Shown one piece after another: positions 537-53,490 of a stretch of 64,000 nt of DNA. A model generated the notes under the pieces. The model was not told the DNA's origin. It was given only the letters and a program-made list of their open reading frames with translations, and searched no databases. The stretch covers positions 12,097,929 to 12,161,928 of the forward strand of contig OZ316895.1 in the NCBI GenBank assembly GCA_973895155.1. The letters are read 5' to 3'. The first letter of the stretch is position 1, and each line of letters starts with the position of its first letter. This DNA is from Marsupella aquatica (lineage: Eukaryota > Plantae > Marchantiophyta). The translations under genes and the position numbers were made by a program.

Positions 537-538
537 AG

Positions 539-550
539 TGGTATCAGAGC
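539..550 (+). promoter_or_regulatory. Primer-binding site (tRNA-iMet) of Copia-1
   Basis: TGGTATCAGAGC, 2 nt after the 5' LTR. Confidence 0.95.
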
Positions 551-2495
551 ATGCCTGGGAGGTGACGAGATTTTTTACGTGACAGGTTTTCCCAGCGTTC
601 ATTGTCGGTGGCACATTCGGAGTTTCGTCGCATGAAACTCGAATGTGTGTGGCTGAGCGGATAGGTTAGTGAGCGGGCTTTCTAACGGTGGTTAGAACTC
701 GCTGATCGGTATCTGTGGTGCAGAGGAATCAAATTTTGAGTCGTTCAGGTTTTATTCGTGTTCACCGGGTTTTTGGGGAGAGACCAGAGTTTGCGTTTTT
801 TCAACCGTATGAGCCGTGCGGTGCGGGAGGGATCGCACATTATAGCTCAAGTTGAAGGTTGAAATGAGCTGGTCATTTTGATAGCTGGATTGTTGCCGAG
901 TTGTTACCGAGTGCATCGTGACGAGTGAAGGAAGCATTCAGGTTTTTTCGCAAGCTATGCTTGGGGGTCTCACTATATGGGGACCTCCCCATCGCCTGCG
1001 ACGTTTTTAGGCCTCGGACCCCCTAAAATATAAGAATTTTTTATTATTTTTTAACACCTATAAAGTTGGAATATTCTAAAAATTGGATTAAAAAGACCCT
1101 AATGTTCTTATAAGTCTCAAAATTGAATTTAAAAGACCCTATTGTTTTTCTACAAAAATTCTTAAGTCTTCCCTTAGAACCAATAAAATGACCCTATCCT
1201 TTGTCGCACGTGATATGCCATTTTTGTGGAAGTGAAACCCCCGAGAAGCTATGGAGCTTGTTCTCATCTGAACCGGGTTTCTCTTCGTGACGTCCGACTC
1301 GGTGGAAGAAACACGAAGTGCTACGGCTCAATGGTTTGATCGCGGCGAGGCGGTCGTTTTGAGCCCAAGATTGGCACTTGATGCGGAGTGAAGTCAATGC
1401 AGCATAATTTTTTATTTTATTTTTCTCTACTGGAGCTGTAGATTGTGCTGGTGCAATTCGGCAACTTTTCCCGTCGGCGGCGTTCACTTTACTCATTGAA
1501 AACGGCGACAGCAAGGTGAGTAAACAGGGCACAATTTGTTTTAAGTAAAATTTTGGCCCTAAGAGGGTCACTTGGTGTGTGTATACACACACGAGATGTG
1601 TATACACACCGCATACCCCCTCCCGGCCCCGTGTACTAGTGTTATACCACCCCCCGCACTCCCGTTATTGTAGGCACAGTGGCGCCGGCCGGCACACTAA
1701 GCGCGACCAGAGACCCTACTGCCGGCGACCATAGCATCCCCAGCGCCCACCATAAGGCAGCCGGCGACGCCCTCCGGCCGGCCTTGGTGTTCCCTGCCTC
1801 TTCGCGAACGATTCCTACCTCCAGTCGGTGCCCCTCCCCGATGCACGGCGTTGATTCGCCCCCTGACCTTGTATCCGGCTGCGTATGTAGCCAAAGCTGC
1901 TATGCCATCGCCATCCTTACGCCCCTGCCCGCGTACGTTGCGACCCCATATGGGGTGTATTTTTACTTAAGGGGCGTTTGGACCCCCTTTAGAGCGCTGT
2001 TTTAGGCATTTTTTCCTTGTTTTTCCCCAGCTCTTCAAATTGGCTATCTTGGGCCCAGTGACCCGGCGTTTTAACTGCTCTGACAAGGGGAACGGCCCCC
2101 TGTGAGACTTGTCCGACTGTGCGGGAATATTCCCCAAAAACAAAGAGTTGTTTTTGGCCGTCCCACAAAGATTCCGCGCACGGAATAGTAACTTTTTTGG
2201 TTCTTTTTTGGCGCGGTCGTAGCCATTGAAGTTGGCAAAGCGGCGCACCAATCACATTGCAATTCCGATGACGGGTTGTACTTGGTATTTTGGTTATTCC
2301 ATGAGGTGGTCAAAACGGGGGAGTTTCCCAAGGTTTTACCCACCCAACCAAAATTTGAATAATTTTTTCGTCGAATGTTGAATTTAATTTTGGCTTTCAG
2401 TATTGGACTCCTAGATTTGTGGGCTATGCGGTGGTGTTGAGTTTTGAGTTTTATGAATAGTTTCAAAAAAAAACATTTTTTTGTGATTGTTTCAT

Positions 2496-5400
2496 ATGAG
2501 TGACTCGGAGAATAATGGAAGAATTGGTGTCGGTGGAGCTTCAAGATCACGACGATCAGACAGTGAGTCTGAGGAGGAGCTGCTACCATTTGAGGAGGAA
2601 CTGTTGAGCATCAACGACAATCACAACGGCAAGTCCATGAACCATCCAACGCACAAGAGTCGACACAGAGAGATACGTGGTTCACCTCCACATGAGGCTA
2701 CATCCATGGGAACACACAAGAGCTTTACTGCACTCTAGGCCAACTGGCCATACCAAGCATCCATAGCACAAGCTCTCTCTATCTCTCAACTGGCTCCGTA
2801 AGAATGAGCCTGAGTTCCACCTCTCCAAGCAAACACCGCTTGGGTATAGAGTGTGCACAGCATGACTAACCTAACCAAGTCTGCAACTAAGATTAGCCTT
2901 AACTACAGTACAGTCGTAACTCTAGACCTAAGAGTAAATCCTAACAGGAACTAGTATCACCGGTATGATCACCGGTGCGGCTTGCAGTGGAGGAAGCTGT
3001 ACTACTACCAAAGCTGTCAGTAGTGGGGAAGAAGAGGGAGATGGCAAGATTTGGAGGAGTGAAGTTTGAGGTGGAGAAGTACGATGGTCGTACTGACTAC
3101 TTGTTGTGGGAGAAGCAAGTGAAGGGTGTTCTACGGGCCATGGGCTTAGCTCATCTGCTCTCTTCGCGAGAGCAGTATGATGGAGAAAAGGAGATTTTAG
3201 AGAAGCAGTGGAGACAGGAGCAGGTGATTGTTGTCAATGCAGTGATGCTATATCTCAAGCTGCACATCATCCAGCAGCTGGATGATGATGCGGATTGCGC
3301 ATCATTGTTCAAGGCTCTAAGAGAGAAGTACTACCGGGAAGATGCGTCAGACCGGCTGTACAAGAAATCTCTCTTGATGAGCCTCAGGCTCAAGGAAGGG
3401 AGCAAGCTACAAGATCACTTGGATGAGTTTGACAGTCTAGCGGTGGATCTGTCAAACCTGGGCAAGGGAGTTGAAGATGAGGATAAGGTCTTGCTTCTGC
3501 TAAGCTCCCTACCGCCGTCTTATCAGGGCTTGAAACATGTACTTTTGTACAGAGATTTGAAGTTCATTTCGTATAATGAGGTGGTGAGCTCTTCACTGTC
3601 TGATGATGCCCAAAAGAAGTTGGGTCAATCACAGACAACATCTTCTTCTAGCACTGCGCTGAACGTGAACCGTGGAAGACCAGCGCAGCGCACGAATGGG
3701 CAGAATAGGTTTAGATCTACATCATGGGGGAGATGTAAATCTAGAGGGAAATTGCAAGAGAGGAAGCCTCTTGCATGTTGGAGATGTGGCAAGCCAGACC
3801 ACATGAAAAGAGATTGTCGAGTAAAGGACCCTAATGCATCAGCTAACATCGCATGAGGTAGATTAACTCGATGATGATGACATATTGTGATACCAAGGTT
3901 ATGCTCTCAACGTAGTGTCAAATCCAGGTAGAGATGATTGGATTCTAGATAGTGCATGTACTTTTTACATTTGCTCTATGAGAGATTTTCCCAGTTCTTA
4001 CACGGTTTCCAACGGGTTAGTGTTGATGGGAAATGGAATCCCATGTCAAGTAGTTAGACTTGGATCTGTTAGATTTCAGATGTTTGATGGTGCTGTGAGA
4101 ACGTTGAGGAATGTGAGACATATTCCCAGTATGATGAAAAATCTCATTTCATTTGGAGTTTTAGAAGCAAATGGCCATCAATGGAGTTCTGCTAATGGTG
4201 TCCTTCAAGTTTTAACTGGTACTAAAGTTGTATTGAAGGGAAAGAGACATAATAATCTATACGTTTTGGAGGGCAATATAGTCTGTGATGAAGCCGATGT
4301 AACCTTATCTCATGAGGAGATGGCCCGGCTATGGCACTTCTGTTTGGGCCACATGAGTGAAAAAGGTTTGGTTATTCTTCAGAAGAAAGGATTACTTTCT
4401 AATTTGTAATCTTGTAAGTTGGAATTTTGTGAGCACTGTGTGCTTGGGAAACAGCACAGAAAACCCTTCGGAGTTGAAACTCACACCAGCAAGGAGGTAC
4501 TTGAGTATGTACATAGTGATGTGTGGGGTCCAGCCCCTACTCCCTCACATTCTGGACGGTTATACTATGTCACGTTCATAGACGATTACTCAAGGTATGT
4601 GTGGATATACTTTATACACAGTAAGTCTGATGTTTTTGCCACTTTTAAGGAGTGGAAAGCCCAAGTTGAGAATCAGATTGGTAATAAGGTGAGATATCTT
4701 CGATCGAATAATGGCGGTGAATATAGTTCCGGGGAATTTGGAACGTATTGTAAGGAACAAGAGATTACCAGCCATCTCACAACAAGTTATACTCCTCAAC
4801 AGAATGGTGTTTTTGAAAGACTCAATCGAACACTATTGGACCGCTCGAGGAGCATGTTGAGTCAATCATGCTTATCACATGAGTTTTGGGCTGATGCTAT
4901 CAACACTGCAGCTTATTTGGTAAATTTTTCTCCATCCAGTTCTATTGGATTCAAGAGGCCATTTGAAATGAGGTACGGGCGTCCAGCAGATTACTCACAT
5001 CTGAGGATTTTTGGATGTGATGCTTATGTGCTTACACCTTCCCAGCTTTGATCCAAGCTGGAATCTAAGTCGAAGAAGTGTATTTTCCTTGGCTATCAGA
5101 AAGGTGTGAAGGGTTATAGGTTATGGGATCCAATAACCTATAAACTAATTGTCAGTAGAGATGTGTCCTTTAATGAATCCAGATCATCAAAGGAGGGGGA
5201 GAGTTCTCAGGACTCCCATACTGACAAGGGGAAATCTTCCATCCCGGACCAAGTTGAGGAGGAGATTAGTCATGATGATGTTCATGACAGGAGAGATGGA
5301 GAAACTTTGGACATGGAGCTGGTTCCTGTAATGGAACAAGAGGAGTAGATTGTTGCTGGGGTACCTCAAATTCAGCCAGTAGCAGCAGCAAATCAGCTTG

Positions 5401-7089
5401 AATCATTTACTAGAAGAACTTCCAATCGTTCTACTAGACTCACCTAAGCTAGATGATATTGACATTAATTGCACCTGATGAAGATGATATGGCTTTGATC
5501 TTGGAAGGAGGAGAGTCTTCTTCATATAGTGAGGCTTGTGCTTTAGAGTAGAAGCATGAACTATGGAATGCAGCAATGCAGAGGGAGTTACAATCTTTGA
5601 GTGACAACAAGACATGGGAGCTGGTGGAGCTTCCAAGAGGTCAGCAAGTGGTGGACAACAAGTGGATTTACAAGTTGAAGGACAGTCCTTCAGAGGGTGG
5701 AGATAAGATCTACAAGGCAAGGCTTGTTGCCAAGGATTCACTCAGGAGAAAGGAGTGGATTACAATGAAGTCTTTTCACCGGTGGCTAAGTATTCCACAA
5801 TTCGAATCTTGTGTCAAGTTGTTGTGTTTTTTGGTATGATGATGAATCAGATGGATGTTGTTACTGATTTTCTCTATGGCAACCTGGAAGAGATGATCTT
5901 CATGAGACAGCCAGTAGGCTTTATGAAGAAGGGCCAAGAGAACTTAGTTTGCAGATTGCTCAAGTCCTTGTATGGATTGAAGCAATCTCCTAAATAGTGG
6001 AACAAGCGGTTTGATGATTTCATGCTTGTTCGATCAAGGTTTTACAAGGATGGTATTTGATCCTTGTGTGTATACAAAATCAGTCAAGAATGATGTATTT
6101 GGTTCATCATTCTGGTTATCTATGTGGATGACATGCTGATTGTGGCTAAAGATGAATCTGAGGTTGACAAACTCAAGGCAAAATTGAGTTCTGAATTCAG
6201 GATGAAGGATCTTGGTAAGGCCAAGAGGATCTTAGGGATGGAGATTTTTAGGAACTCTGATACTGGACAGTTGTACTTGAGTCAAGGCCAGTATGCGAGA
6301 AAAGTACTTGCACGATTCAACATGAAAAATTGTAAATCAGTGAGTATTCCTTTAGCTTCACATTTCAAGTTGTCATCAACTTTCTCTCCTACAGATGCTG
6401 TGGAGAAAGGTCTGATGGCTAAGATTCCTTATGAGAAGGCAATAGGCAGTCTGATGTATTTGATGACTTGTACTAGGCCTAACTTGGCCCTGGCGATGGA
6501 CAAGGTTAGCAGATTCATGTCGAATCCAGGGAAGGTACATTGGGAAGCTGTGAAGTGGATTCTCACGTATGTGAAGGGAACACAGGACTATAGATTACTA
6601 TTTGATGCCACATCAGATAGAACGTTAGTTGGCTATGTAGATTCTAACTATGGAGGTTGTTTGGACACAAGGAGGTCTACAATTGGGTTTGTATTTAGTC
6701 TTGGAGGAGGATGTATCAATTGGAAATCTACCTTGCAGAAGTGTATATCTCACTCTACTACAAAAGTAGAGTATGTTGCATCAGCAGAAGCAACAAAGGA
6801 AGCAATTTGGTTGGACAAGTTGATCGGGGAGATGGGTTTAGAGCATGGCAAAATGACTCTAAACTGTGATAGTTAGAGTGCTCTTCATTTGGCTGCTAAC
6901 CAGGTGATGGATAGCAGAGTGAAGCACATTGATATCAGGTACCATTTTATTAGGCAAGCAGTGTCTGATAAAACTTTTGAGCTAGTCAAGATTGATGGAA
7001 AGCTCAATCCCGCTGATGCCTTTACCAAAGTGATTCCTTTGGAGAGTTTCTCAAGACACCGTGCTACTTTGCAAGTTTTGCAGTTGTAG
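2496..7089 (+). pseudogene. Copia gag-pol polyprotein, disrupted by a solo LTR, stops and frameshifts
   Basis: Gag (FEVEKYDGRTDYLLW; zinc knuckle CWRCGKPDHMKRDC), protease WILDSAC, integrase HSDVWGP and YTPQQNGV, RT QMDVVTDFL and YVDDML, RNase H GYVDS and KHIDIRYHF, spread over several ORF fragments. Confidence 0.95.
2602..2946 (-). mobile_element. Solo LTR inserted antisense into the Copia-1 gag 5' end
   Basis: 345 bp, TG..CA ends, 5-bp TSD GGAAC (2597-2601, 2947-2951), homologous to the reverse complement of the Copia LTRs. Confidence 0.92.
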
Positions 7090-7280
7090 TGCAAGTAGAG
7101 TTATTTAGCAATGTGTGATTATTTGTATATGGATTACTCATCCCTGATTGGCTACGGCTTAGTTCTAGTTAACCCTTAGTTAACCCTTGTGGTTTTTAGG
7201 GGGAGACCTGGTTTGGTGATTGTCTAGAACTTCCCGTTGAGGATTCCATATGGTAGCATTTAGTCCAGTCTAGAAGACAA

Positions 7281-7294
7281 GAGTCAAGGGGGAG
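7281..7294 (+). promoter_or_regulatory. Polypurine tract of Copia-1
   Basis: GAGTCAAGGGGGAG just before the 3' LTR. Confidence 0.85.
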
Positions 7295-7296
7295 TT

Positions 7297-7641
7297 TGTT
7301 AGATATTGCTCTAGTCTTGTGACTCATGAGCTAACCACAGTTAGTCTAACTCGGGTTAGGACTTAGCTAATGTTAGCGGTAGTGTTGTTGTGCATATAGC
7401 CAGGGCTTATGCCAGACCCTAGGTGGAACTTAGGCTCATTGTTACGGAGTTAGTTGAGAGATAGGGAGACCTTGTGCTGTGGATGCTTGGTATGGCCGAT
7501 CGGCCTAGAGTGCAGTAAAGCTCTTGTGTGTTCCCGTGGACGTAGCCTCATGTGGAGGTGAACCACGTATCTTTCTGTGTTGACTATTGTACGTTGGATG
7601 GTTCATGGGCTTGCTGTTACGAATGTCGTCTATGCTCATCA
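7297..7641 (+). repeat. 3' LTR of Copia-1
   Basis: Direct repeat of 192-536, followed by TSD GTTGG. Confidence 0.97.
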
Positions 7642-7652
7642 GTTGGGGCTTT

Positions 7653-7678
7653 ATCAGCCTATTCATTAAAAGTGTATT
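7653..7678 (+). repeat. Left terminal inverted repeat (26 bp)
   Basis: Exact reverse complement of 20702-20727. Confidence 0.95.
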
Positions 7679-7689
7679 ATTATTTGATT

Positions 7690-8015
7690 TATGTACATTT
7701 GGGCAATGAAAAGTGTACTTTTGGGCTTGGAAAAGTGTACATTTGGCCAATGAAAAGTGTACATTTGGGGATAGAAAAATGTACAATTGGCCCAAAGAGT
7801 GTACATTTGGGCAATGAAAAGTGTAAATTTGAACATCAAAATAGGTACATTTGGCTTTAAAAGTGTACATTTGAGTACATTTGGCCTAGAAAGTGTACAT
7901 TTGAGTGAAAAATGCATACATTTGGCTTAAAAAGTGTACATTTAAGTGCATTTGGTCTAGAAAGTGTAACTTTTAGTGCAACAAAGTGTACATTTGGCCT
8001 AAAAAGTGTACATTT
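7690..8015 (+). repeat. Left subterminal array of AAAGTGTACATTT(G) motifs
   Basis: Roughly 15 variably spaced copies; a variant (AAAAGTGTATT) lies inside the TIR. Confidence 0.9.
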
Positions 8016-8267
8016 GCCTACCAACTCTTCTTATAATCATTTAAAAGAAAGGAATGAATAGAAAAATATTTTTAATTATGTAGAAAAAGCAAACATTCAT
8101 ATTCATAATGATCAAAAGTTTAGAAAATGAGGAGATAGTATCAAATTAAAACTATTAGAATAGTAAATAACTAGTACGTAAATTACTATGTTTGAATGAG
8201 TGACTATCTTAGTTACATAAAAACTAGTAACTATCTATTTAATTATTATAGCTTCTAACAACTAAGT

Positions 8268-10886
8268 CTACTTGTCCATCCTTTGAAGATAATTTTGGAC
8301 AGTTTGTAGAACATTTTGAGGGATCTTCAAACCTCTGCCCGCCATGTTTTCTTCTTTCATTCCAGATTTAAAACCATACATTGCAGAATTTGCATACTGC
8401 CAATGTTGAGTATTCTCACCAAACCCTGGATCTCGTTCCCATGTCTTAGTGGACATGAAACAATTTAGATACCGCGCACTCTCAGTCACATCAAGTTTAG
8501 AGTGTTTAGGCCTCCACCATTCAACTGGGAACATTGGAGCGTACTGTCGAGGCAGAGAAGGGTTTGTTGAAGATGTAGTTGGGACTTCATGCTTTGGGTC
8601 CACCAAACCCAAAGCTCTCACCAACCAGAAATGACCTCCACCATTTTTATTCTCCCAATCATCCTCGGGTCGAAGAAATACAAAGTTTCCTTCACAAATA
8701 TCCTGTAAAGGAATCCATCGTCCTTGTTCTCTCTCAGCTCGAGATCCAACAAATGGTGTTGCTTGATCTTCCATCTCTTCCAAGACCTCATTTTGAAGAG
8801 CCGTTATCTCTGCATTCTCCTCATCTTCACTTGGAGGACCACTTTGTTCCGGTTGGTTGACCTTGTAACCAGTGCCGTGGTTAGTCTTAGGCCAAAATCT
8901 GTTTTTCAAGGGAAATTGAGTACTTCCCTCCCCTTCTAGTGCGAGCCCATTTGTCAACAACTCCACAATTCTCTCCCAATATTTCACAAGAGGAAATCTT
9001 TCCTTATATGCTATAGATGTCTCATCAGTGCAACTCCTTCTCAAAAAATCAAGGTACTTGTTAAGAAATGGGATAATCTCTTCAGATTTTTTGTGTATCT
9101 CTCCAATGGATTTAGCTAAGGGCTCTCCACTAGGTAAAAGAAGAGAATTTGTTGTCAGATCTGTTGCCCAAATGCACCTTCCACCAACTGGAGCCCAAGC
9201 TTGCTTTACATGGGACTTATACTGAAATATTGGTACATTATCTCTCATAGAGAAAAGAAATGATACAGGTTTTGAGTGACCTTGAATATCTTTCACCTTG
9301 AAAGTTTGAAGATATTCTTTGTAAGATGCAACTTCTTGTATCAATCTGGGAACTGGATGAATGCTCTCGCATTCCCATACCTCTGCCATAAGAGCAAGGA
9401 GGGTTGCAACTTCTTTGTGCTGAACTTGATATGATACCTTTGAAAAGAGTGCATCAACATCTTCGTGCGTATGACCAACCATTAGAAAAGACATTTGAAC
9501 AGTTTCAAATACTCCTCTACTCACAAGCTCGCTACAAAATGCCATGACAGTCTGGTTTTTGTTGTCCTTTGCTGAATTATCCATCTGCAATGTTAGGTGC
9601 CTTGGCAAGGGCTTGAACGATGGACTGCCTTGCTCTCCTTGCATGTCTTCTCCTTCATCCTCATCTTGTTGGTTTGGGACGGTCTCAGTCCGACTCTCAG
9701 CTCCATCTTCAGAACCAATATACCTATTCATCGGTATATTCTTTGGTTCCAAATAACCCGTCAAAAATGCTTCAAAGTCAAGTAGGGCTTGAAAGAAAGG
9801 TCTGTGAGGTTCCCAATGAAGGCCATCCAACATGTCACCTGTCTTGTCTCCATTATACTCTTCAAGGTCTCGAAGACACTTAGCCAAGGATGTCACTGTG
9901 AAATCGGCATCTCCTGGCCAAAGGCCAGTGACACTAAAGTGTGCATAAACTCCTGGATCCCTCCCGTGGGTCAACATCCCTGTGAGAGCAATAGGTAGCG
10001 GCATTCCATGACCCGAAAGAGATTTAGGAGTACTAACCATTTTTGGAATCCATGTCTTTGCTTGATCCATCTTGTCGTGAATAATGCAAAGATATTCTCC
10101 TGGGTGTTGTTTGGCCATCACTCGATGAGCGTAGTAAACATATCTACGTGACATTTGCTCACGAAGATGTTGGGCTCGCTTTTCTTCAATTTCAGCACGT
10201 TCTTTTTTCCTTCTTTCTCGCATCAAACTGTCTTTGTATTCACAACAAAGAGTACACTTGGCAAATGCACCATCTTTATGAAAACTAAAGTTTGAAAATG
10301 AGTTGCTCCAGATCTTGTAGAGAGTATTCTCTGTGACAGGAGGAAGCCCTTCTTCCTTCATCTTTGTTCTCACATCTTCCAGAATCTCTAGCTTCTTGTA
10401 ACACGCCGGAAGACGGTACTCAGTAGAGTCTGTCCCATGTGCCCCTCCATAAGGCATATGAGGCATGGGCTCTGCATTTCGAGTCAAAAAAGCCTCCAAC
10501 AGAGCTCGTGCATGCAAGGTATTTGCCCTTGTTTTCATCAAGCCCGTATTGCCATGGAACCCAATTTTGCAACACTCCACATATCTCCTTTTGTAATCAT
10601 AATATTTGGTGTGGCTAAAACCATGGATAATTGCAAATGCATGTCTGCATACGACCATACCCTTAAGAACATGGTGTCCCTTATCACGAACATCATCCTC
10701 TCTATAGTGAAAGAGGTTGAAAATGTGTGACGTTTTTGACTCGCTTGACATCCCATGAAATTCCATCCTAATATCTTCGATGTTTTCCCTTGGCATAATG
10801 AGACAACATTTTTGCTTGCAACAATTTTCTCTTTTCACGTCTCTTTGAAATTGCCTTGGTTTCCAACAACCTCCTCTTCTTTTCAT
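8268..10886 (-). CDS. Sola-like / DUF7869-type DDD transposase, main ORF (872 aa)
   Basis: Cys-rich start CCKQKCC..CRHAF, CxxC (KCTLC), putative catalytic segments IIHDKMDQ, LQMDNSAKDNKN and FLMVGHTHEDVDALFS, and a C-terminal SH3/Tudor-like segment (GNFVFLRP..HFWLVRA..VEWWRP). Confidence 0.85.
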   Translation of the reverse strand: MKRRGGCWKPRQFQRDVKRENCCKQKCCLIMPRENIEDIRMEFHGMSSESKTSHIFNLFHYREDDVRDKGHHVLKGMVVCRHAFAIIHGFSHTKYYDYKRRYVECCKIGFHGNTGLMKTRANTLHARALLEAFLTRNAEPMPHMPYGGAHGTDSTEYRLPACYKKLEILEDVRTKMKEEGLPPVTENTLYKIWSNSFSNFSFHKDGAFAKCTLCCEYKDSLMRERRKKERAEIEEKRAQHLREQMSRRYVYYAHRVMAKQHPGEYLCIIHDKMDQAKTWIPKMVSTPKSLSGHGMPLPIALTGMLTHGRDPGVYAHFSVTGLWPGDADFTVTSLAKCLRDLEEYNGDKTGDMLDGLHWEPHRPFFQALLDFEAFLTGYLEPKNIPMNRYIGSEDGAESRTETVPNQQDEDEGEDMQGEQGSPSFKPLPRHLTLQMDNSAKDNKNQTVMAFCSELVSRGVFETVQMSFLMVGHTHEDVDALFSKVSYQVQHKEVATLLALMAEVWECESIHPVPRLIQEVASYKEYLQTFKVKDIQGHSKPVSFLFSMRDNVPIFQYKSHVKQAWAPVGGRCIWATDLTTNSLLLPSGEPLAKSIGEIHKKSEEIIPFLNKYLDFLRRSCTDETSIAYKERFPLVKYWERIVELLTNGLALEGEGSTQFPLKNRFWPKTNHGTGYKVNQPEQSGPPSEDEENAEITALQNEVLEEMEDQATPFVGSRAEREQGRWIPLQDICEGNFVFLRPEDDWENKNGGGHFWLVRALGLVDPKHEVPTTSSTNPSLPRQYAPMFPVEWWRPKHSKLDVTESARYLNCFMSTKTWERDPGFGENTQHWQYANSAMYGFKSGMKEENMAGRGLKIPQNVLQTVQNYLQRMDK

Positions 10887-12006
10887 TAGGATCTACTTGA
10901 TTCCTCTTGTTGAAATTGTACGGCCTTGAACACAGTACTCCTCTATCACTTACATCCGCATTGAGTTCATCCCTATCCATTGAGTCCATCCTCTCAGAAC
11001 CTTCCACCAAAATGTCTGACAAAAATTTTCCATTTGCAACTAGTTTTGTTGAATCAATCCGCCATCGAATCAAACTCACTACTCCCTTGTGGATGTTGGG
11101 AAAGTATTGTGCTGCCACGACATCTTTCACAGCAATCCCAACATGGTCATCACCAAGAATTTCATCATCAACTGCTGCTGTCACTTGAGGGACAGTGATC
11201 GTTCCAGTGGCAACCATTTTGGTTCGATCCAAACCAGTGTAGAGTTCAACCAACTCTGACATCCAGTTTGCCCGATGAAAATAGTCACACCTAGTGTCCG
11301 TGGTGTTCGCCAAACAAGACTGTGAAACAAAATTTGCCTTGTCCTTCTGCTTCTTAGAGGAAGATTTTTTGCTCCCATCAATATCAACATTCCATACTTT
11401 ATTGTGGACGTCAACCACATCCCATAGAACCCAGGAGCCCTTTGCCTCTTCAATTGTTGCAGCTCCACCATGTGCGTAAGGTAAAGTCTTACTACCATGG
11501 ATCACATCTGTGACTTTTACACTAACCCGAGACTCACCGAGTAATATGTTATGACATCTCTCCATTGGATCGGTCTTGAAAACAACTCCAAAGGCCACAC
11601 AATGGCCAGAGATAAACATTTCAACCTCATCGCCTGGCCTTAGGGTGGTCGAAGCATCCTCCTCTACATTTGCAAAATTATGGATGTTGTTATCTTTTCG
11701 AGTCGAACAACTACCAATACTGATGCGTTTTTGAGTAATCTTATCCGCAGATCGATATGCACATGACATATCCCAAATGACACATGAGTCAATGGCATCA
11801 TGAAGATTTTCTGCCCTAGGCATTGGAAAAGGGAGCTTCCTAGTCTCACCAAAGGCCTTCTCAATGAGAACCCCAATTCGATTCTCTCCCAGCACAATAT
11901 TTTGAACACTCTCTCGCGGATCTGTCTTTTGAACTGTCCCATTTCCAACGTCGTAACCATCGATTGTCAAGGTAACATCATCGCCCCTAGAAAACCTTTG
12001 AGACAT
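10768..12006 (-). CDS. Probable N-terminal part of the transposase (frameshifted) with three Tnp1/En-Spm (Transposase_23/DUF8039-like) repeats
   Basis: Three repeats of VxxGxVxxTDPxxxxxxxxLGxxxVxVxxxxV..LP..W (e.g. VAFGVVFKTDPMERCHNILLGESRVSVKVTDV..LPY..TIEEAKGSWVLWD). Overlaps the 872-aa ORF by 119 nt. First ATG at 12006, just after an acceptor-like tttttcagtgtgcag. Confidence 0.7.
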   Translation of the reverse strand: MSQRFSRGDDVTLTIDGYDVGNGTVQKTDPRESVQNIVLGENRIGVLIEKAFGETRKLPFPMPRAENLHDAIDSCVIWDMSCAYRSADKITQKRISIGSCSTRKDNNIHNFANVEEDASTTLRPGDEVEMFISGHCVAFGVVFKTDPMERCHNILLGESRVSVKVTDVIHGSKTLPYAHGGAATIEEAKGSWVLWDVVDVHNKVWNVDIDGSKKSSSKKQKDKANFVSQSCLANTTDTRCDYFHRANWMSELVELYTGLDRTKMVATGTITVPQVTAAVDDEILGDDHVGIAVKDVVAAQYFPNIHKGVVSLIRWRIDSTKLVANGKFLSDILVEGSERMDSMDRDELNADVSDRGVLCSRPYNFNKRNQVDPNEKKRRLLETKAISKRREKRKLLQAKMLSHYAKGKHRRY

Positions 12007-12071
12007 CCTTTTCCTATTTTCCTGCACACTGAAAAAAATGGATTAAAACCAACCTCATGCAAATTTTGATT

Positions 12072-12962
12072 CAGACTACTATCCTCCAATTTCGGATTTG
12101 GACTAGGACCATCCGAGTCCGGATTTGCACCGGGACCATCCAAGTCTGGATTAGGACTGCAATCCTCCGAGTCTAGATTTGGACTACGATCCTCCGATTC
12201 TGGATTTGGCCTGGGACCATCCAAGTCCGGATTTGGACCGGGACCATCCAAGTTCGGATTTGGACTGCAATCCTCCGAGTCTGGATTTGGACTACAATCC
12301 TCCGATTCTGGATTTGGATTGGGACCATCCGAGTCCGGATTTGGACCGGGATCATCCAAGTCCGGATTTGGACTGCAATCCTTCGAGTCTGGATTTGGAC
12401 TACGATCCTCCGATTCTGGATTTGGACTGGGACCATCCCAGTCCAAGGTTGGACTAGGACCATCCCAATCCAAACTAGGACTCGGACCATCCCAATCCAA
12501 ACTAGGACTTGGACCATCCAAGTCCAAACCTGGACTCGGACCATCCCAATCCAAACTTGGACTTGGACCATCCCAATCCAAACTAGGACTTAGACCATCC
12601 AAGTCCAAACTAGGACTCGGACCATCCCAATCCAAACTAGGACTTAGACCATCCAAGTCCAAACTAGGACTCGGACCATCCCAATCCAAACTTGGACTCG
12701 GACCATCCTAATCCAAACTTGGACTCGGACCATCCAAGTTCAAACTTGGACTCGGATGATCCCAATCCAAAGTTGGACTCGGACCATCGTAATCCAAAGT
12801 TGGACTCGGACCATCCCAATCCAAACTAGGACTTGGGCCATCCAAGTTCAAACTTGGACTCGTATGATCCCAAAACAAAGTTGGACTCAGATGATCCCAA
12901 ATGAATGCAAACTTGGACTAGGACCATCCGAATCCAAACTTGGACTAGGACCATCCTAGACC
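12072..12962. repeat. 27-bp tandem array (~33 units) upstream of the transposase CDS, probably intronic
   Basis: Unit ggactcggaccatcccaatccaaactt. The left part has a 4-unit (108-bp) higher-order repeat x3. Bounded on the minus strand by a donor AAG|GTGAGT near 13163 and an acceptor near 12022-12030. Confidence 0.92.
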
Positions 12963-13499
12963 AACCCATGATGTAATGGGAGATAAACTTCAAACATCTT
13001 AAGCTAAGAAAAATCCAAATTTAGGAAGACCCCGTATTTTACGGATCTCCCTAGATATGGTGTAGCCTAAAGTTTGCGTGGTCTTAAGGCAGACCCTAAT
13101 GTCTACATCCAGTTTCATGAAATAATGGAACCTTATATTTGAATGCATTAACCTTATACTCACCTTAGTATTAAGATCTGGTAGAAGATGAATATCACAT
13201 CCAAGGGGTATACATTGTTGTTTGAATAATGGTAAAAACTTCCCAGAAGCTTGAAATACAAGCTATATGCCACTAAATCTTGGGAGTAAAAAACAAACTG
13301 AACCCTAAACCACACATGTCTGTAAAAGATAAACTGAGAGGACTCCAAAAGTCAAGAAGATGGCTAAGCTGACCCAATGAAGGTAAGTGGCTCAATACAT
13401 AACACTTTAAGAGAAACTCCACTCCGGATTACATGGAGCTTAGATTTGGGAAACTAGAACAAGAATGAGCTCCGAAGTGGGCGTCTCCCAAATTATACC

Positions 13500-13984
13500 C
13501 TTTGCTCGAGTCGGCTCAACCGGAAATCGCGTGAAGATAAGGGTTGAGTACGCGTTCACCTTAGCTTGCGGACACACCTTATCTTCACGAGCCTATTTGT
13601 GCGGGGACTACCATGGAAGGCTGTTAGGTAGGCAGGACATCAAGGAAGGAGGCCGTATGCAAGGTGAGGGCAACGGGCCGTACGCCATAGCAGGCCGTAC
13701 GCAGTAGGAGGCAACCGGCCGTACACAGGCCGGGGTGAGGCAGGAGGGGGTAAAGGGACGGAGAGGTCCAGCCAGGACCTCATTCTCATTCTCTCACTCC
13801 TCGCTCTCTCGCTCTCTCGCTCTCTCCTCCTCACTCTCTCGCTCTCCTTGCTCTCCACTCTCTCTCCGCTGTTCGTTCTCTCTCTGCCTCCCCGCCTCCG
13901 CCTGCCTCCGCCTTCCACCTTCCACCTCCATTCTTTTTTATTGCCCTAGATCGGACGCCTGCTAAGACGCCACGTGTTAGAAAG
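13500..13984. promoter_or_regulatory. Putative bidirectional promoter region between the divergent genes
   Basis: GC-rich; 13-bp inverted repeat (13530-13542, 13577-13589), four GGCCGTA motifs (~13650-13722) and a CT-rich tract (13780-13935). Confidence 0.45.
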
Positions 13985-14147
13985 ATGGAAGCGAATCGCG
14001 TCCTTGTGATGTCCTACGTGGAAGAAACGGAGGAGTTTGACCTCTCCTCTATGAGCGACAGTGTGGAACTTGCACTCGAAGACTCTAGACAATTTCAATC
14101 ATGAATCCCTAGTAAGTATCTATCACCTATCCTCCCTAAGTCTTAGA

Positions 14148-14305
14148 GGACTGGGACCATCCGAGTCCAAACTTGGACTCGGACCATCCCAATCCAAACT
14201 TGGACTCGGACCATCCAAATCCAAACTTGGACTCGGATGATCCCAATCCAAAGTTGGACTCGGACCATCCCAATCCAAAGTTGGACTCGGATGATCCTAA
14301 TCCAT
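14148..14305. repeat. 27-bp tandem array (~6 units) in predicted intron 1 of the cargo gene
   Basis: Same unit and orientation as 12072-12962; one more degenerate copy near 14355-14378. Confidence 0.92.
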
Positions 14306-15229
14306 CTGGGAGATTGAATCCCGATTGTAGGAGCAAGTCTAAAACCATCTCAAGTTGGACTAGGACCATCCTAATCCAACAAGAGTTATTCGAATGTTTT
14401 AAAGGTTTCAAGTCTAACATGGATGACGTTTATGATGCAGGGAGTGATCTTGTTGTTTTCAAACCCGCGATTGCACCGACCCACTGCCTGGACGGATTCT
14501 GACTAAATGAGAGATCCCCACGCTTTCGATGGGGGCTTGACTTCTCAAGAACCCCGCTTAATAATGAAGTGCCATCAACCACGATTGAACCTGTTTTGAC
14601 CTTAAAGTGCAGAGAAAATGATAGCCTGACTTTTGTTTGCGGACCTGTGGTCTCTGTTGGCATTGGAGGGAGAGGGATGAATACGGTCATTCTCGAGATG
14701 CACGATAAGTCCTATTGGGTTAAAGTTAACCTTCTGTCAAAGGCATACTCCTCTGAATTCAATGTCGAATGGCACGCAAGTGGGGAATTGAGCGTTTTGT
14801 CAATGGGATTTTTTCCAAAGACCTATGACACAAAGAAGTTGGTCGCCGGGGTAACTGGTATGCTTCCAGTCAACATTATGTATGGGTTTCAATATTTGAA
14901 ACTCAACATGATGAAGCACCAAGGCAATTTTTCTTTTGCAACTACCTGGACGTTAAGCAATTTACTTGAGAAAGCTGGATTGTTATCGTTGGAGTCGGAG
15001 GAGCCTGGTGTTTTAATTGATAAGGATGTTGCATTTGCTCCCAAGTTTGATTTAGTCAAAGCAAAGCAATGGATAGAATCTTTGTCCAAGATGAGAAAGC
15101 TTCCAGCGGTGAATACAAACCCTGTGCCCGAGAAAGCGCCAGAGAAAGCTCCAGAACCTACAACAGAGACCGCGGGAACTACAGCAGCGACCTCTCAAAG
15201 AGCAGTGGGAAGACGAAAACAAAGCCAAA

Positions 15230-15425
15230 GGAAACCTCCGGTTGAGAAGAAACTTCCGGTTGAGAAGCCGAGTACAAGAAGCCGAGTACGAGAAGCCGAG
15301 TACGAGAAGCCGAGTACGAGAAGCCAAGTTGACAAGCCAGTTGACAAGCCAGTTGACAAGCCGAGTACGAGAAGCCGAGTTGAGAAGCCAGTTGAGAAGA
15401 AACGTCCGGTTGAGAAGCCGAGTGC
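15230..15425 (+). repeat. Coding tandem repeats (KPSTRSRV / KPVEK / KPVDK)
   Basis: Repeated gagaagccgagtacgagaagcc and agttgacaagcc units within the open frame, followed by NLS-like KRPRQKKKQK. Confidence 0.85.
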
Positions 15426-16210
15426 AAGTGAAAAGAGACCAAGACAGAAGAAGAAACAGAAAATTGACAGTGCCATCATGGATGACACTACAGAAAACCT
15501 GACAGTGCATTCACAAGATGTGGACGAGCAGTTGGACGCTCCTGAGGAGAAGAAGGTCTTAGAAGGTAATGAGGTATTGCAACAAATGGAGCAATATTAT
15601 ACGTTTGGGATCAATTCGATATTTTCTATTCCTGTAGACAGTATTTTCCCTGCGTCGGCAAGACTCTGTTACAGAATGTTGAATGCAGAACATGTAAAGG
15701 AGGTGGCCAATTCCATGATAAGAAATCTGGGGCATGAACCACACATAGCAGACTTGATTCCTTACACTACAAAACATAGAAACCTAATGCAGTATGACAA
15801 CACAGAATCAGATAGGAGGGACTTTGTAGCAGCCGTGAAAAAGGGCGAGGTTCAATTCCTTGCCATTAGCGGTCAACATTCAGCTAGAGCAGCCAGATGG
15901 ATTCGAGAATGGGCAAACAAGGATGCCAAGCTGACAGCATTGGCGAAAAAGCTGGAATTTTGAAAGTCAAGAATATTATCTCATCGAACACCATCGTCAA
16001 TATTAGTTGAGCATTCAATGCGATCTAATGCGATCAATAGCACGATGGTGTTTCAATCATGCTTCAAAGATACAGTCGTTCATGCTAGGCGACAATTTGT
16101 GGAATGTGGAAAACCTAGCCGGCGAAAACATGGGGACAACAAAACAAACGCTCAAGACAATCAAAAATTTAAGGTACGAAGTGTTACTGCTTGATGGGTA
16201 CAATACCGTA

Positions 16211-16605
16211 GATTCATGCACATTCAGTAGAATATTTCCACTGATATCGCCTAGTTTTGCGTTGGACCGGGATGGTCCCAGTCCAAATGGATTCATGCAC
16301 ATTCAATAGAATCTTTGTCCACTGATATCGTCTAGTTTTGTGTTGGACTGGGATGGTCCCAGTCCAAATGGATTCATGCACATTCAGTAGAATATTTCCA
16401 CTGATATCGCCTAGTTTTGCGTTGGACTGGGATGGTCCCAGTCCAAATGGATTCATACACATTCAATAGATTATTTTTCCACTGACACTGTCTAGTTTTG
16501 TTCTGGACTGGGATGGTCCCAGTCCAAACTAAATCATGCACATTCAATAGAATATTTCCACTGATACTGTCTAGTTCTGTGTTGGACTGGGATGGTCTCA
16601 GTCCG
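16211..16605. repeat. Five ~80-bp tandem units (alternating 79/81 bp) in predicted intron 2
   Basis: Units start at 16211, 16290, 16371, 16450 and 16531. Each ends in the hairpin-capable TTGGACTGGGA-TGG-TCCCAGTCCAA, the reverse complement of the 27-bp motif core. Confidence 0.93.
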
Positions 16606-19198
16606 TACCTGAGTGCTATCAAACAATTGAGTTATGGAGAACTAATAGACTTTCCTTTGCAATTGTAGGATTGGTTGGCTCTTGCAAGAATGACCATGGG
16701 AAGGAAAGATTGTCGAAATGTTTACTGGTTACTGTTTGCGGACGATGCTCTTTTTGAGTTATGGAGTTTGGTATGCCAGTTGTGGTTGGATGGGAAACTT
16801 CCCGATGGAGCTGGGGTAGAAGGAAGTGAGAAGTCTGAAAAAGCAATTATTGTTGCCATGTTTTGTTGTTTTGATGGTGAGTTGATCTCACAACGAGACA
16901 TCACAAGAATACTGACGCGGGTGAAGTCAGGAAAGGTATTGCTAAAGAAAGATGCCTCTAATAAATCAGACATGCCATCTATAGAGGAGTTGGCCAAAGA
17001 TGTGAAGATCATGCGGAAACTGAAGTCCCTTATTGAAGACTACTATTGCACCAAGGATGCGGTGAATTTCCCGGCAAATACTAATTGGGGGAAAGTAGTG
17101 GAGGTTCTTCCTACGCTAGCAATTGATTCAGAGTTTAGCAGGTGTCGAAGAGCCGCTGGCGAGGTCTATCTTGCCAACCTTTTAAAACCAAATCATACGC
17201 GGGAGAGCGCAATCTTGCCGACGGCATTGGCATTCCGCCTAGATGATATATACTGCCAGAAATTTGGCGGAGGATCACGTTCTTGGACCCTACCATGGGC
17301 TACATTTTTTAGCGACAATCTCATGAAGACCATTGATCCAGAGTCATTGCAAGAAGCTCCTCCGACCTGCCCTCTTGCCATTGTTGATTTTAGCCGGCTT
17401 CCGCAAAAACAATGGACTGAAGCAGAGATTCTTGTTCTCTTTGAATACATTGTGGAGCTTCCACAAAATCCCACGATTGTTGTGACGATAACAGTTCATC
17501 CTGGACAACTTGCATTGAATGTCCATGGTGCCCTTCGTAAACTGGGACAAGAGAAAGCTTTGACCATTCACATTGAGTATGGGAGTTATTCTCGAGATGA
17601 TCAACCGCACCCTCATGACTCATGTTGGGGTGGGGGGATTGAAGAAGTTATCTTTGCGGGGATTTCTCGAGATGAAGACGTCAATTGGAATGAAGTTTTC
17701 AAGCCCAACTATCCAAAGCCAAAATTCTTGTATACTGCAAAGGATGTTGATTACGAAGTATGCAAGATCGACAAGGGAAAGGGGAAGGCTAAGGAATCAG
17801 ATGAGGGGACACAAAACGACGACCTAAAAGTGGTTTTGGACCCGGAAGAGGCCGTCAAGATTATGAATATGGCCCCTCGATTTGAGACAGTTGGCAGTCG
17901 CAGAGGGTGGGTTAATCCTCATGCCAAACCCACGCGGATGATCCGAAGGATTATTGAATCCTTGTCAGAACCGGGAGATTTGGTTCTAGATTTTTTCTCC
18001 AGTGGCCAAGTCATGAAGACATCATTTTTTTGCGATAGGGAATGCTTTGTTTATTGTGACTCTCACTCCGAGAGGCATTTTGTGGAAGCTTTTGCTTCCT
18101 ACCTTTGCGAGAGAGTTCCCTCACTTAAAGCTCATTGTGAATCACTTGCTGAAAATTCTCGACAATGGGCTACAACTGTTGCGGCTGTAGCTGTCGCTGT
18201 TGAATCTGATGGTTCTGAGTCTGAAGATGTTGCTGACAAAGTGGCTGAAGGCGTAGAGGCATCAGAGGAGGCATATGTCATGAATTTGGATGACCGTGTT
18301 GGTCAAGGTGAGCCTTACGATGTAGATGATGATATTGGACTTGCACCAAACCGTTCATCTGGTTTAGATGACATCCCTCCGGGGCCCAATGAAGTTCAAG
18401 TTGATGATAACTTGGACAAGGATGATCCCAATCCAACAACGCCGGGAGGACAGATGGAGCAACTGGAAGGAGCAAGGGTTGATACGTTTGATCATCTTTC
18501 TTCAACCAATCTGATCAATGAAGGCGCAACGAGGCTCGGAGATTCAAATGAAGCTGAAACTAAAGAATTGACTCGGGGGGAGACCGAGGGGGAGACTGGC
18601 GGATTGCCTGACATTCCGATCAATCCAGGAGGAAATGCATCAACGGCTGCTGACAACCAGGCAGGTGCTTCAACTTGTCCTGACACACTCTTTTCAGCTT
18701 CTGATGACAAATTGGTGTTTGTTCGTTCACACTCGGGGAGTCCTATTGTCCTTCCGCTCTCAAAAAAGAAAGGAAATAGAGTTGGATCAACTGGATGGAG
18801 GTCATTGGAATGCGACGCACGATGTTACGTGTGGAAAAGTGGGCCAAATCGAGGCCAAGAAATATCATTGTCCGATGCTGCTCCTTCAATTCTCAATAAG
18901 GAGGAGTATAAGAGTGGAGAATTGGGGTTGATAACTCCTATTTGGACTTCACCTTATTGGGTAGAACAAAGTACTTCAGATGTCAATTTTGAAATCCAAC
19001 AGGAGCTTGGTGCTGACATGATTATTGATGAATACGGATCTCTTATTTCGGAATGAAATTCAGCCTTTGACTTTGTATTTATTCATATCAATCTAAAATA
19101 CTTCTCGGTCTCACAGAATGCGCTCAAGAATTAAAGTCTCCATATCCGTCTACACATTGTGAGGCTTCTAAAAACGGTATGTAGGTTAATTTTCTTTT

Positions 19199-20332
19199 TT
19201 GTCAGCCATTGTCTTGTATTTTTGGACTGAGACAATCCTAATCCAAAGTTCACTTTTGGTCTTTTCTCTGAGAATGGTGTTTGGTGCACTTGCAGAATCG
19301 AGACCTGGTCCCCTCAAGCGGAAGTTGCTGATTTTGGACCTTAATAAAATACTTTGGGATTCTATTGAATTCCAAAGCAAGGGCACATCCAGGAATATTG
19401 TCACCTCAAGTGGAGTGCATTGGGATAGATCAAATGGAACTAGTCGCATGTATACAGAGAGGCCATGGCTCCATGAGTTTCTAAAGTTGGTTTTTGACCG
19501 GTTTGACGTTGCAATTTGGACATGTGCTGGGATGCCGCGAACAGTGAAAATGTTGAACATGATGTTCACAATTGAGGAGCGGTTGAAACTGAAGTTTGTA
19601 TTCACACAGGTGGAAGCCTTTGACACAGGCATTCAAAGGCGTGACGTTACAAATGGAAAGGCAAATGTGCTATTGAAGGATTTTCGGGTGGTATGGAGTG
19701 CATTTGGAAATCTATATGATGAAACCAACACACTCCTTGTGGATGACTCCCCCTTGAAGGCATTTGCCAACCCAGACATGACCGGACTATTTCCAGTGCC
19801 CTACACGCATGCCAATCGTGGAGACAATTTTCTTCTAACAATTCTTTGGTCATGTCTTGAGAAACTGTCACATGCAAGTGACATTCGTTGTTATCTTCTC
19901 CTAAACTCTCCAAAGTGGTCTCTATTGCACATTAAGAGAGACAAGGCAAAAAATGAGATTACTTATGATCAACTTAGTAAGAGATGTGCAGCAAAAATTT
20001 GGAAGTCACAGTATAGGCATAGTGTGCTGGACCTCAATAGCAATGAGATTCCTTGGGCTGTGAAGCACCGTATATGTAGCTTACGTCCTGAGGTGGAACT
20101 TGACGATGCACTTGTCACCTCACTTGCTAGATCATTTGTAGGACGGGAATATTCAGGTCTGTATAGAGAAAATCCCAGACACTTTTTGCGGGAGATTATA
20201 GCAGTTAGGAACAACACCACCAAATTTCATCTCCCTGAAGATAAAGGGAGTTGCAACCGTGACATTAGGGTAGATAGTAAAGGAGACAAAGGCACGTGCT
20301 CAAATAAATATTGTAAGGAGCACTTTGTTTAG
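19199..20332 (+). CDS. FCP1/NIF-homology HAD-superfamily phosphatase-like cargo protein (5' end uncertain, probably spliced)
   Basis: RKLLILDLNKIL, ERPWLHEFLKLVFDRFDVAIWT, LLKDFRVVW and NTLLVDDSPLKAFANP; Cys/His-rich C-terminus. Probable intron 19177-19295 and 60-nt exon 19117-19176. Confidence 0.85.
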   Translation: MSAIVLYFWTETILIQSSLLVFSLRMVFGALAESRPGPLKRKLLILDLNKILWDSIEFQSKGTSRNIVTSSGVHWDRSNGTSRMYTERPWLHEFLKLVFDRFDVAIWTCAGMPRTVKMLNMMFTIEERLKLKFVFTQVEAFDTGIQRRDVTNGKANVLLKDFRVVWSAFGNLYDETNTLLVDDSPLKAFANPDMTGLFPVPYTHANRGDNFLLTILWSCLEKLSHASDIRCYLLLNSPKWSLLHIKRDKAKNEITYDQLSKRCAAKIWKSQYRHSVLDLNSNEIPWAVKHRICSLRPEVELDDALVTSLARSFVGREYSGLYRENPRHFLREIIAVRNNTTKFHLPEDKGSCNRDIRVDSKGDKGTCSNKYCKEHFV

Positions 20333-20597
20333 AGATCTGACTCATGTTAAGCGCATTAGATAGTAAAAATGGGTGCCAGCCCTGGATATTCATTGTAAGT
20401 TTGGACACAATTGTATATAATTATTTTCACACATTATCAATCAATGGTCCTTGCCTGGGCTTCTTTGTGCGGAAATGTTTTTACAAGTATGATCTCTATC
20501 CCATGGTTCTTTGTGAACTAATAAATAATATAATACTATTATAATTAATATAATATAATATAATATATTAATATAATACTAATAAGATTTGGCCTAT

Positions 20598-20677
20598 AAA
20601 GTGTACATTTAGGTATCAAAAAGTGTATATTTGGGCTTCGTAAAGTGTACATTTGGGGACATAAAAGTGTACATTTC
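20598..20677 (+). repeat. Right subterminal AAAGTGTACATTT motifs (4 copies)
   Basis: Same motif and same strand orientation as the left array. Confidence 0.88.
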
Positions 20678-20701
20678 AGGACTGATTTGTGAACAAAAGA
20701 A

Positions 20702-20727
20702 AATACACTTTTAATGAATAGGCTGAT
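20702..20727 (-). repeat. Right terminal inverted repeat (26 bp)
   Basis: AATACACTTTTAATGAATAGGCTGAT followed by TSD CTTT. Confidence 0.95.
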
Positions 20728-21032
20728 CTTTACAAGGAAGATGACTAGCTTGTAGTTGAAGTTTGATAAGTAAAATGATTCCTTTTGGCCATGAACACAA
20801 ACAAAGTTTTTTCACGTGATTATGCATTAGCCTGTTTTTAATTTCACTCATCCATTGGGAAACTTGATCCAAGAAACTGGGAGATATTGCCCCAGGATAA
20901 TCATACATCAAAATGTGATAATATAAAATATATATATTCATTGACTTCAAAAAAATAACAAAGTTTATCATGGCATTGGGAGATGTCATACACTGTATGT
21001 GTCTTATTTTGATGTGCAGTTACTTGACTCAA

Positions 21033-52915: not shown

Positions 52916-52972
52916 CATATTCCAAAATTAATCATATGATTCTACCCCCTTTACAGACAATATAGTTACTAG

Positions 52973-53318: not shown

Positions 53319-53490
53319 ATCTCCCCCTTGACTCTGGTCTAGGGGAGGGTAATATTGCTAACTATATGATTCCTCAACGGGAAGTTCTGGACGGAAACCA
53401 ACTAGAGCAAACCAGAACTAAGCCGTAGCCTATTACTAGGAGTGAATAAGAGCATATATCAATAATTACAACGAATGTTAAGAAAAACCC

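Follow-up and report, generated by a model that had tools for sequence, protein, structure and literature searches.

We analyzed a stretch of 64,000 nucleotides from the liverwort Marsupella aquatica (contig OZ316895.1, positions 12,097,929 to 12,161,928; hereafter the window) and found that it contains a DNA transposon of 13,075 bp with terminal inverted repeats (TIRs), located at positions 7653-20727. The transposon carries as cargo a spliced gene, here termed the fusion gene, which joins a predicted ParB-like part to a predicted beta-class methyltransferase fold. It also holds a gene for a DUF7869 transposase, an NIF-type phosphatase open reading frame (ORF), and many copies of a 25-bp palindrome (Table 1). 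When the element was excised in silico, the resulting empty site aligned colinearly with a host repeat located at 61.9-62.3 kb. Many divergent contigs covered all 30 bins of the element in four out of four runs, and it therefore represents a multicopy family. An initial annotation, made from the sequence alone, had placed the gene in a plant transposon, and the 26-bp TIRs, the CTTT target-site duplication (TSD) and the transposase bear this out. The palindrome arrays had been missed.

Table 1. Features of the transposon and its fusion gene (window positions)
Feature	Position	Strand	Remarks
Left target-site duplication CTTT	7649-7652	+	4-bp TSD
Left TIR	7653-7678	+	26 bp, perfect match to right TIR
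Left subterminal 22-nt repeat array	7692-8020	none	Repeat finding
DUF7869 transposase (DDE-type)	8268-12042	-	Pfam PF25273, E 1e-43; frameshift near 10840-10850 splits ORF
27-nt tandem array between divergent genes	12074-12964	none	23 palindrome copies at <=3 mismatches
Proposed exon 1, putative ATG at 13985	13985-14111	+	Joined frame; TGA at 14102
Intron 1	14112-14440	+	GT-AG, GTAAGT...ATGCAG, 329 nt, phase 1; holds 7 palindrome copies
Exon 2	14441-16173	+	N-terminal domain, K/E/P-rich linker, ParB/Srx-like domain; TGA at 14500, 15961
ParB/Srx-like domain (predicted)	~15559-16137	+	Fold taken from homolog P0113, 62% identical
ISGQHSARA	starts 15865	+	Within ParB/Srx-like domain
Intron 2	16174-16668	+	GT-AG, GTACGA...TTGTAG, 495 nt, phase 0; 79-nt tandem unit, 5 palindrome copies
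Exon 3	16669-19056	+	ParB-type helical domain, helical linker, methyltransferase fold, acidic tail, C-terminal segment
Predicted ParB-type helical DNA-binding domain	~16669-17022	+	Start of exon 3
Beta-class methyltransferase fold (predicted)	~17278-18108	+	AIVDFSR from 17377, DFSR 17386, NPHAKP 17914, DFFSSG near 17990
NIF/FCP1-like haloacid dehalogenase (HAD) phosphatase ORF, second cargo gene	19190-20332	+	Pfam NIF, E 6.5e-15
Right subterminal 22-nt repeat array	20598-20676	none	Repeat finding
Right TIR	20702-20727	-	26 bp
Right target-site duplication CTTT	20728-20731	+	4-bp TSD

Both introns proposed in the initial annotation were present, with GT-AG ends and compatible phases, and the three exons joined give exactly 1415 codons and a stop at 19054-19056, where about 1415 codons had been predicted. 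The three peptide motifs that had been singled out, ISGQHSARA, AIVDFSR and NPHAKP, were likewise found at their positions. The joined frame contains three internal TGA codons. At 15961 homologs mostly have an arginine, and contigs in all four runs read a G>T change at 14501, which turns the TGA at 14500 into a sense codon. Exon 1, with its putative ATG and putative intron 1 donor, is uncertain because of the TGA at 14102 and because a weaker alternative phase-1 donor at 14061 would skip it. The window copy of the gene is a pseudogene, and since the transposase gene is frameshifted as well, the element copy in the window is dead.

The homolog gene models used to assess splicing are themselves predictions. 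At the intron 2 donor, 8 of the 14 homologs of the ParB part read K[FY]Q/V, RFQ/V or FE/V (the slash marks the junction) and one ends there; four others continue into exon-3 sequence, as does one further full-length model. The Calypogeia gene models P0027 and P0113 read KFQ/D[WY] across the site, and P0111 is a single frame of 1009 amino acids from ParB through methyltransferase, corresponding to intronless DNA or a transcript. On the acceptor side many exon-3 ORFs of relatives start with Q/[DE]W, in a list that includes misaligned rows. Judged from these alignments, intron 2 is well supported by relatives on both the donor and the acceptor side. The acceptor of intron 1 is backed indirectly: in four of five homologs [FC]A/[EVA] lies 28-30 residues ahead of the first conserved tryptophan (30 in the window). 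None of the six runs listed was an RNA run, and neither junction was among the 15 joints listed out of 96; neither result has a bearing on expression.

Exon 2 includes a conserved N-terminal domain of ~200 amino acids (14467-15100) common to P0001 and P0003-P0007, for which no Pfam match and no PDB sequence match was found. A conserved C-terminal segment, W..GP..G...[DE]EYGS (18637-19050), follows the acidic tail and is common to many homologs; it may serve in dimerisation or as a reader.

No ParB family was found in the exon 2 ORF or its homologs by Pfam, PHROGs or NCBIfam, and PDB sequence searches with profiles of the ParB part gave no meaningful match. The fold was modelled with AlphaFold on the natural homolog P0113, which is 62% identical to the ParB stretch of the window (predicted local distance difference test, pLDDT, 94). 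In a Foldseek search of the PDB, Noc, ParB, KorB and sulfiredoxin (Srx) ranked at the top (best E 0.003), and among viral structures phage ParB/Spo0J did so (E 9e-5). The seven best rows in VIA were PadC, KorB, SerK, pNOB8 ParB, SbnI, Srx and Atu1540 (Z 7.7-5.2), the best having a Z of 7.7 and a root-mean-square deviation (rmsd) of 3.6 over 98. As the three structure searches agree, a ParB/Srx fold is supported, and the exon 2 domain is predicted, with modest scores, to have the ParB/Srx N-terminal fold. Because the alignments to KorB (model residues 20-322, Z 7.5, with a high rmsd of 12.9) and Spo0J (42-311, Z 4.3, rmsd 4.5) run on through the helices encoded after intron 2, the ParB part probably also includes a helix-turn-helix domain, in addition to the ParB-like domain of the initial annotation. 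Identity to bacterial and phage ParB proteins in the structural alignments was 9-17%.

The initial annotation had likened ISGQHSARA to the ParB/Srx signature GxHR, and the ParB-like fold held. The position of GERRxRA, the arginine motif that binds CTP in ParB (PMC7333895), reads GQHSxxA family-wide, with H and S in all 19 rows covering the site (42 rows in all), so that the arginine of GxxR is replaced by serine throughout. Other pocket positions, N157 and N160, were invariant, and so were H107 and S108.

In the ESM Atlas the nearest neighbors of residues 55-260 of P0111 were fungal DUF3723 clusters (0.95), with a ParB_N cluster at 0.91. DUF3723 (PF12520 in fungi) is a conserved gene of Starship elements (10.1101/2021.12.13.472469). 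DUF3723 may be ParB-like, a lead that hints at the fold of this core gene of Starships; no DUF3723-ParB connection was found in the literature searched.

The methyltransferase fold was modelled with AlphaFold from the window's own sequence (pLDDT 89). The model aligned to CcrM with Z 18.3 and rmsd 3.3 over 215 residues (model 99-382 to chain 3-258); across CcrM, M.BceJIV, M.MboIIA, M.RsrI, M.PvuII and N4CMT the Z was 14.8-18.3, and the structure search gave E 2e-7. The family profile matched M.RsrI with E 5e-10, and Pfam N6_N4_Mtase matched the window with E 9e-6 and a score of 26.2, just below the gathering score of 26.7, which 3 of the 18 homologs scanned reached. Exon 3 is thus predicted to hold a beta-class methyltransferase fold with motif IV before motifs X-I. 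Structure models and searches together returned, at better than chance level, both the ParB/Srx and the beta-class methyltransferase matches anticipated in the initial annotation.

Strand 2 of the model ends at D133 of DFSR, a position at which CcrM carries DPPY (PMC10406627). The DPPY motif had been described as lost at AIVDFSR, and in the alignment of homologs [DNS]PP[YFW] was found to be absent in 119 of 119 family proteins; P0100, a DPPF-bearing and bacterial-looking protein, was excluded from the family counts. Motif IV reads DF[ST]R; of the 31 rows (69 in all) that cover the site, 28 carry the D, 25 the F and 23 the R. The lysine of NPxxKP was found in 38 of 41 rows, and a DFFSGG-like motif I is kept as well (D in 30, F in 32, G in 31 of 34). 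Compared with M.RsrI, motif I lacks one residue; it reads DFFSSG in the window copy and DFFSGG in the family. The GD motif that precedes the first helix varies across the family. D133, K313 and DFFSGG were kept in homologs that are only 14-52% identical over the methyltransferase domain. As the changed motif IV is family-wide while the motifs on the S-adenosylmethionine (SAM) side are kept at this level of identity, the loss of DPPY appears to be old and maintained, and the alignment indicates that it is a family trait and not decay of the window copy. In CcrM and N4CMT an aromatic residue stacks on the target base (PMC10406627). At its position the fusion family has R or K, and this loss argues against classical catalysis. 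On these grounds the fold is likely to be catalytically dead, as the initial annotation had suggested, and the fusion protein is probably not a classical methylase, although with the D and the SAM-side motifs retained some activity is conceivable.

A phmmer search with exon 3 returned 101 proteins at E<=0.001. Of 30 exon-3 relatives looked up, 10 carry an organism name, in each case Riccia or Calypogeia, and of 16 matches to the ParB part 7 are named, all of them from liverworts. Relatives of the fusion gene were located on liverwort chromosomes. The initial annotation had regarded the module as derived from bacteria or phages. The prokaryote-type folds agree with this, and a bacterial or phage origin may be inferred from the folds, but no close donor was found in metagenome, viral-contig or phage scans. 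A metagenome scan with exon 3 gave 67 pattern matches and a viral-contig scan with the ParB alignment gave 25, none of them relatives, and a phage tblastn search gave 24 records with a best E of 0.01, covering motifs X-I only.

The 27-nt and 79-nt tandem units of the element have in common a 25-bp palindrome, TTGGACTGGGA-NNN-TCCCAGTCCAA, with 11-bp arms. At <=3 mismatches 38 matches were found compared to 0.04 expected by chance, the pattern being derived from the same repeats that it was counted in. Twenty-three copies are located between the divergent genes, seven in intron 1, five in intron 2, one after the gene and two in coding sequence, i.e., 36 of the 38 are outside coding exons. No copy was found in the 64-kb window outside the element.

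We propose, with about even confidence, that the fusion protein is a transposon accessory protein that binds the element's own palindromes as a ParB-type dimer and thereby controls the element, with the methyltransferase fold serving as a binding module. The product of an intact fusion gene would bind, via the helix-turn-helix domain, to the 25-bp palindromes in the promoter region and introns of the element, and would in this way likely govern how the element is expressed or silenced. Its role could be anti-silencing or self-regulatory, as has been proposed for PAG3 of red algae and as accessory proteins of VANDAL elements are reported to act. Since the SAM-side motifs are kept but DF[ST]R replaces DPPY, the methyltransferase fold would most likely be a second DNA- or base-binding module and not a classical writer of N6-methyladenine (6mA) or N4-methylcytosine (4mC). 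Any supply of the protein to the broken window copy would have to come in trans. Points in favour of the proposal are the predicted folds, the number of palindromes and their confinement to the element, the methyltransferase motifs kept in distant homologs, the red-algal precedent of PAG3 next to inverted-repeat arrays, and linkage, in that two of eight Riccia fusion gene models have a DUF7869 gene two locus tags away (P ~0.004 under a uniform model).

A number of observations weigh against this proposal. Most of the 38 palindrome copies stem from tandem amplification, and the copies do not count as independent sites. The P0113 model has no PDB structure match at E<=0.001, a VIA Z below 8 falls in a range that possibly reflects a common arrangement only, and the helix-turn-helix call rests on alignments of high rmsd (12.9 for KorB). 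Clamp sliding is not assured because the CTP-binding arginine is a serine in 19 of 19 rows. For the other six of the eight Riccia fusion gene models no listed DUF7869 gene lies within 30 locus tags, the closest among the 71 listed being 32-243 tags away. Finally, related DUF7869 elements carry palindrome arrays of their own and no detectable ParB-methylase gene: L010, L011 and L012 carry 22 copies of the palindrome GGTGGCCACC, while L002 (8685-9350) and L004 (60-923) carry arrays of a 32-bp palindrome, in 5-7 copies, upstream of the transposase.

Because such arrays occur where no fusion gene was detectable, the transposase could be what binds the palindromes, and the fusion protein might then bridge the ends, steer insertion or favour transmission of the element, for example. 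This agrees with the absence of a ParB or methylase match in all 80 distant-transposase loci scanned (the best 80 of 503, found with a 27%-identical transposase relative as query), a scan in which the window as positive control scored E<=4e-46. Short or decayed sequences are frequent among the 80 loci, however, and generic scans of them for palindromes and for TIRs and TSDs gave mostly noise, so that no family-wide TSD rule was obtained. We find the explanation quite unlikely, as separate 22-nt subterminal repeats occupy both ends of the element, the usual place for such sites, whereas the palindromes lie further inside, with copies in the fusion gene's introns. An active enzyme is unlikely, too; the fusion protein would then be a methyltransferase targeted by its ParB part, with a non-canonical motif IV, DF[ST]R, and would deposit 6mA or 4mC on the element that encodes it. 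The predicted fold is a complete beta-class fold, the D and R of motif IV, the lysine of NPxxKP and the DFFSGG-like motif I are kept, and a bacterial-type 4mC methylase is known in a liverwort (10.1101/2021.02.12.428880). These points are countered by the family-wide absence of [DNS]PP[YFW], by the R/K in place of the base-stacking aromatic, and by the shortened motif I and variable GD motif.

The adjoining NIF gene, the invariant pocket residues H107, S108, N157 and N160, and the tie of SerK (Z 7.2) and SbnI (Z 6.3) with ParB proteins would fit an enzymatic cassette, in which a ParB/Srx fold, a methyltransferase fold and a HAD phosphatase together modify a nucleotide, a base or a protein, as do enzymes of the SerK/SbnI/DndB type or phage modification loci of the ParB-terminase type. 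Two of 18 proteins matched DndB weakly (E 0.03 and 0.05), and phage ParB-Tls methylase loci are on record (PMC4738411). We regard such a cassette as quite improbable, given the predicted ParB-like helical DNA-binding domain that follows the N-terminal domain and the presence of the NIF gene in the related elements L010-L012, where no fusion gene was detectable. NIF domains are also normally protein phosphatases, acting on the C-terminal domain of RNA polymerase II. The prokaryote-type folds might, on their own, point to bacterial or phage DNA assembled into the window or to a domesticated single-copy host gene. This is largely refuted and very improbable: the gene has spliceosomal introns conserved in relatives, it lies between TIRs and TSDs, divergent copies are numerous in four runs, relatives are located on liverwort chromosomes, the window copy contains stops, and phage matches were weak only (E>=0.01).

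A wider form of the proposed self-binding, which we consider unlikely, is that liverwort transposons run a transplanted nuclear ParB/parS system. A dimer with a re-tuned nucleotide pocket would load at element-specific palindromes, spread over the element, and deliver a non-canonical methyltransferase that marks the element or shields it from silencing; with PAG3 and the DUF3723 of Starships as further cases, ParB-like self-binders would then have turned up repeatedly in giant transposons of eukaryotes. If true, a bacterial partition module has been reused in eukaryotic chromatin. The methyltransferase part would be of interest either as a conserved pseudo-methyltransferase or as an amino-methyltransferase whose catalytic motif is new, in a lineage where 4mC is found.

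In the literature searched, outside of which lay most subscription papers and Repbase, no description of a ParB-methylase fusion in liverwort transposons was found; the part of PMC12344493 covered does not mention ParB. The closest known systems are the red-algal Plavaka elements, in which PAG2 combines a PF01555 methylase with a SET domain and PAG3 combines a ParB-like domain with a 2-oxoglutarate (2OG) oxygenase (10.1101/2025.02.11.637652). Here, too, ParB-like and N6_N4-methylase-type domains are cargo of large DNA transposons, tandem inverted-repeat arrays lie beside the ParB gene, and self-binding is proposed. Compared by description, the liverwort family differs in that both domains are fused in one protein whereas PAG2 and PAG3 are separate, and the element has a DUF7869 transposase and not a Plavaka/EnSpm one, liverwort hosts, and NIF as other cargo. 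No Pfam match to a SET or 2OG-oxygenase domain was found in the window ORFs or 18 homologs. The fusion gene is a fused variant of this recently recognised type of transposon accessory gene, on a different element and in land plants.

In the anti-silencing system of the VANDAL elements of eudicots, the accessory protein VANC recognises tandem motifs within the non-coding DNA of its own element, the mode proposed here. According to the red-algal study, VANDAL elements are the only ones for which such sequence-specific self-binding by an accessory protein is established (10.1101/2025.02.11.637652). The VANC mode is experimentally established whereas that of the fusion protein is proposed, and the two are without a shown relation in sequence or fold. 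The fusion family offers a testable second case of self-binding, in land plants, with one protein, one defined 25-bp site, and annotated liverwort relatives. Like bacterial and phage ParB, Spo0J, Noc and KorB with parS, the fusion protein is predicted to have a ParB/Srx fold and, after it, a helical DNA-binding domain, and palindromes are repeated in cis; unlike them it has GQHSARA for GERRxRA, is without ParA, and has a methyltransferase fold attached, and the site, unlike parS, is 25 bp with 11-bp arms (PMC7333895).

The methyltransferase part resembles CcrM, M.RsrI, M.PvuII, the rotifer N4CMT and the Marchantia MpDN4MT1 in the whole predicted fold and in having motif IV before X-I, and its NPxxKP and DFFSGG resemble the HPTQKP and DFFAGSG of beta-class enzymes. 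However, MpDN4MT1 keeps TSPPY (10.1101/2021.02.12.428880) and N4CMT keeps SPPY (PMC10406627), where the fusion family has DF[ST]R, and both of these are host genes whereas the fusion gene is transposon cargo. A ParB-related part N-terminal to an amino-methyltransferase is also known in eukaryotes from the ParB-HTH-fused Dam methylases of chlorophytes and chytrids, next to which stand the ParB-Tls methylases of phages; the former belong to an M.EcoKI/M.TaqI-type group, whereas the fusion protein is a beta-class match found in transposons of land plants (PMC4738411).

Homologs of the transposase of 1250-1334 amino acids span both window ORFs, which are in two frames, and HDKMD, QxDN and GHTHED are invariant among them. 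The QxDN and GHTHED motifs of this DDE-type transposase presumably resemble those of Sola1; TIRs and a 4-bp TSD fit Sola DNA transposons as well. Relatives of the transposase were found mostly in Riccia sorocarpa, with more distant ones in mosses, including Physcomitrium, and marine invertebrates, and Sola1 likewise has relatives in Physcomitrium and invertebrates. No mention of DUF7869 was found in the literature searched. Sola1 is listed for Physcomitrella (PMC9033089), and few of the active TIR elements of plants belong to Sola (PMC12973397, PMC9033089). Sola1 follows an AWWT target rule (PMC3845634), as opposed to CTTT at the window element, although this is one insertion and a single site defines no preference. 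With 13 kb and two cargo genes the window element differs from Sola1 in this respect also.

The NIF ORF further matched HAD-IIID with E 2e-16, which is under that family's cut-off. Its first motif reads DLNKIL; in FCP1-type enzymes the first motif is DxDxT. The C-terminus of P0108 was considered as a start of NIF, but the match had an E of 0.29 only and was not used. The related DUF7869 element L010 (1202-12482), like L011 and L012, has a 36-nt inverted repeat pair and decayed NIF gene(s).

The surroundings of the transposon contain other mobile elements. A decayed Copia long terminal repeat (LTR) retrotransposon is located at 192-7641. Its LTRs share ~95% identity across 300 nt, and its TSD, GTTGG, is 5 bp long; it was inserted 2 bp from the left TSD of the TIR element, into the same host repeat. 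Another decayed Copia, on the minus strand at ~52970-59420, has gag, integrase and reverse transcriptase matches and 289-nt repeats at 52973 and 59132 that are 96% alike. Long inverted matches, 93-95% over 126-224 nt, connect 35933-36483 with 61576-62275 and are tied to a 118/136-nt tandem repeat resembling the insertion target of the TIR element. An ORF on the minus strand at 51110-51724 matched COX6A above the Pfam cut-off (E 7e-6) and is possibly a host gene or a retrocopy.

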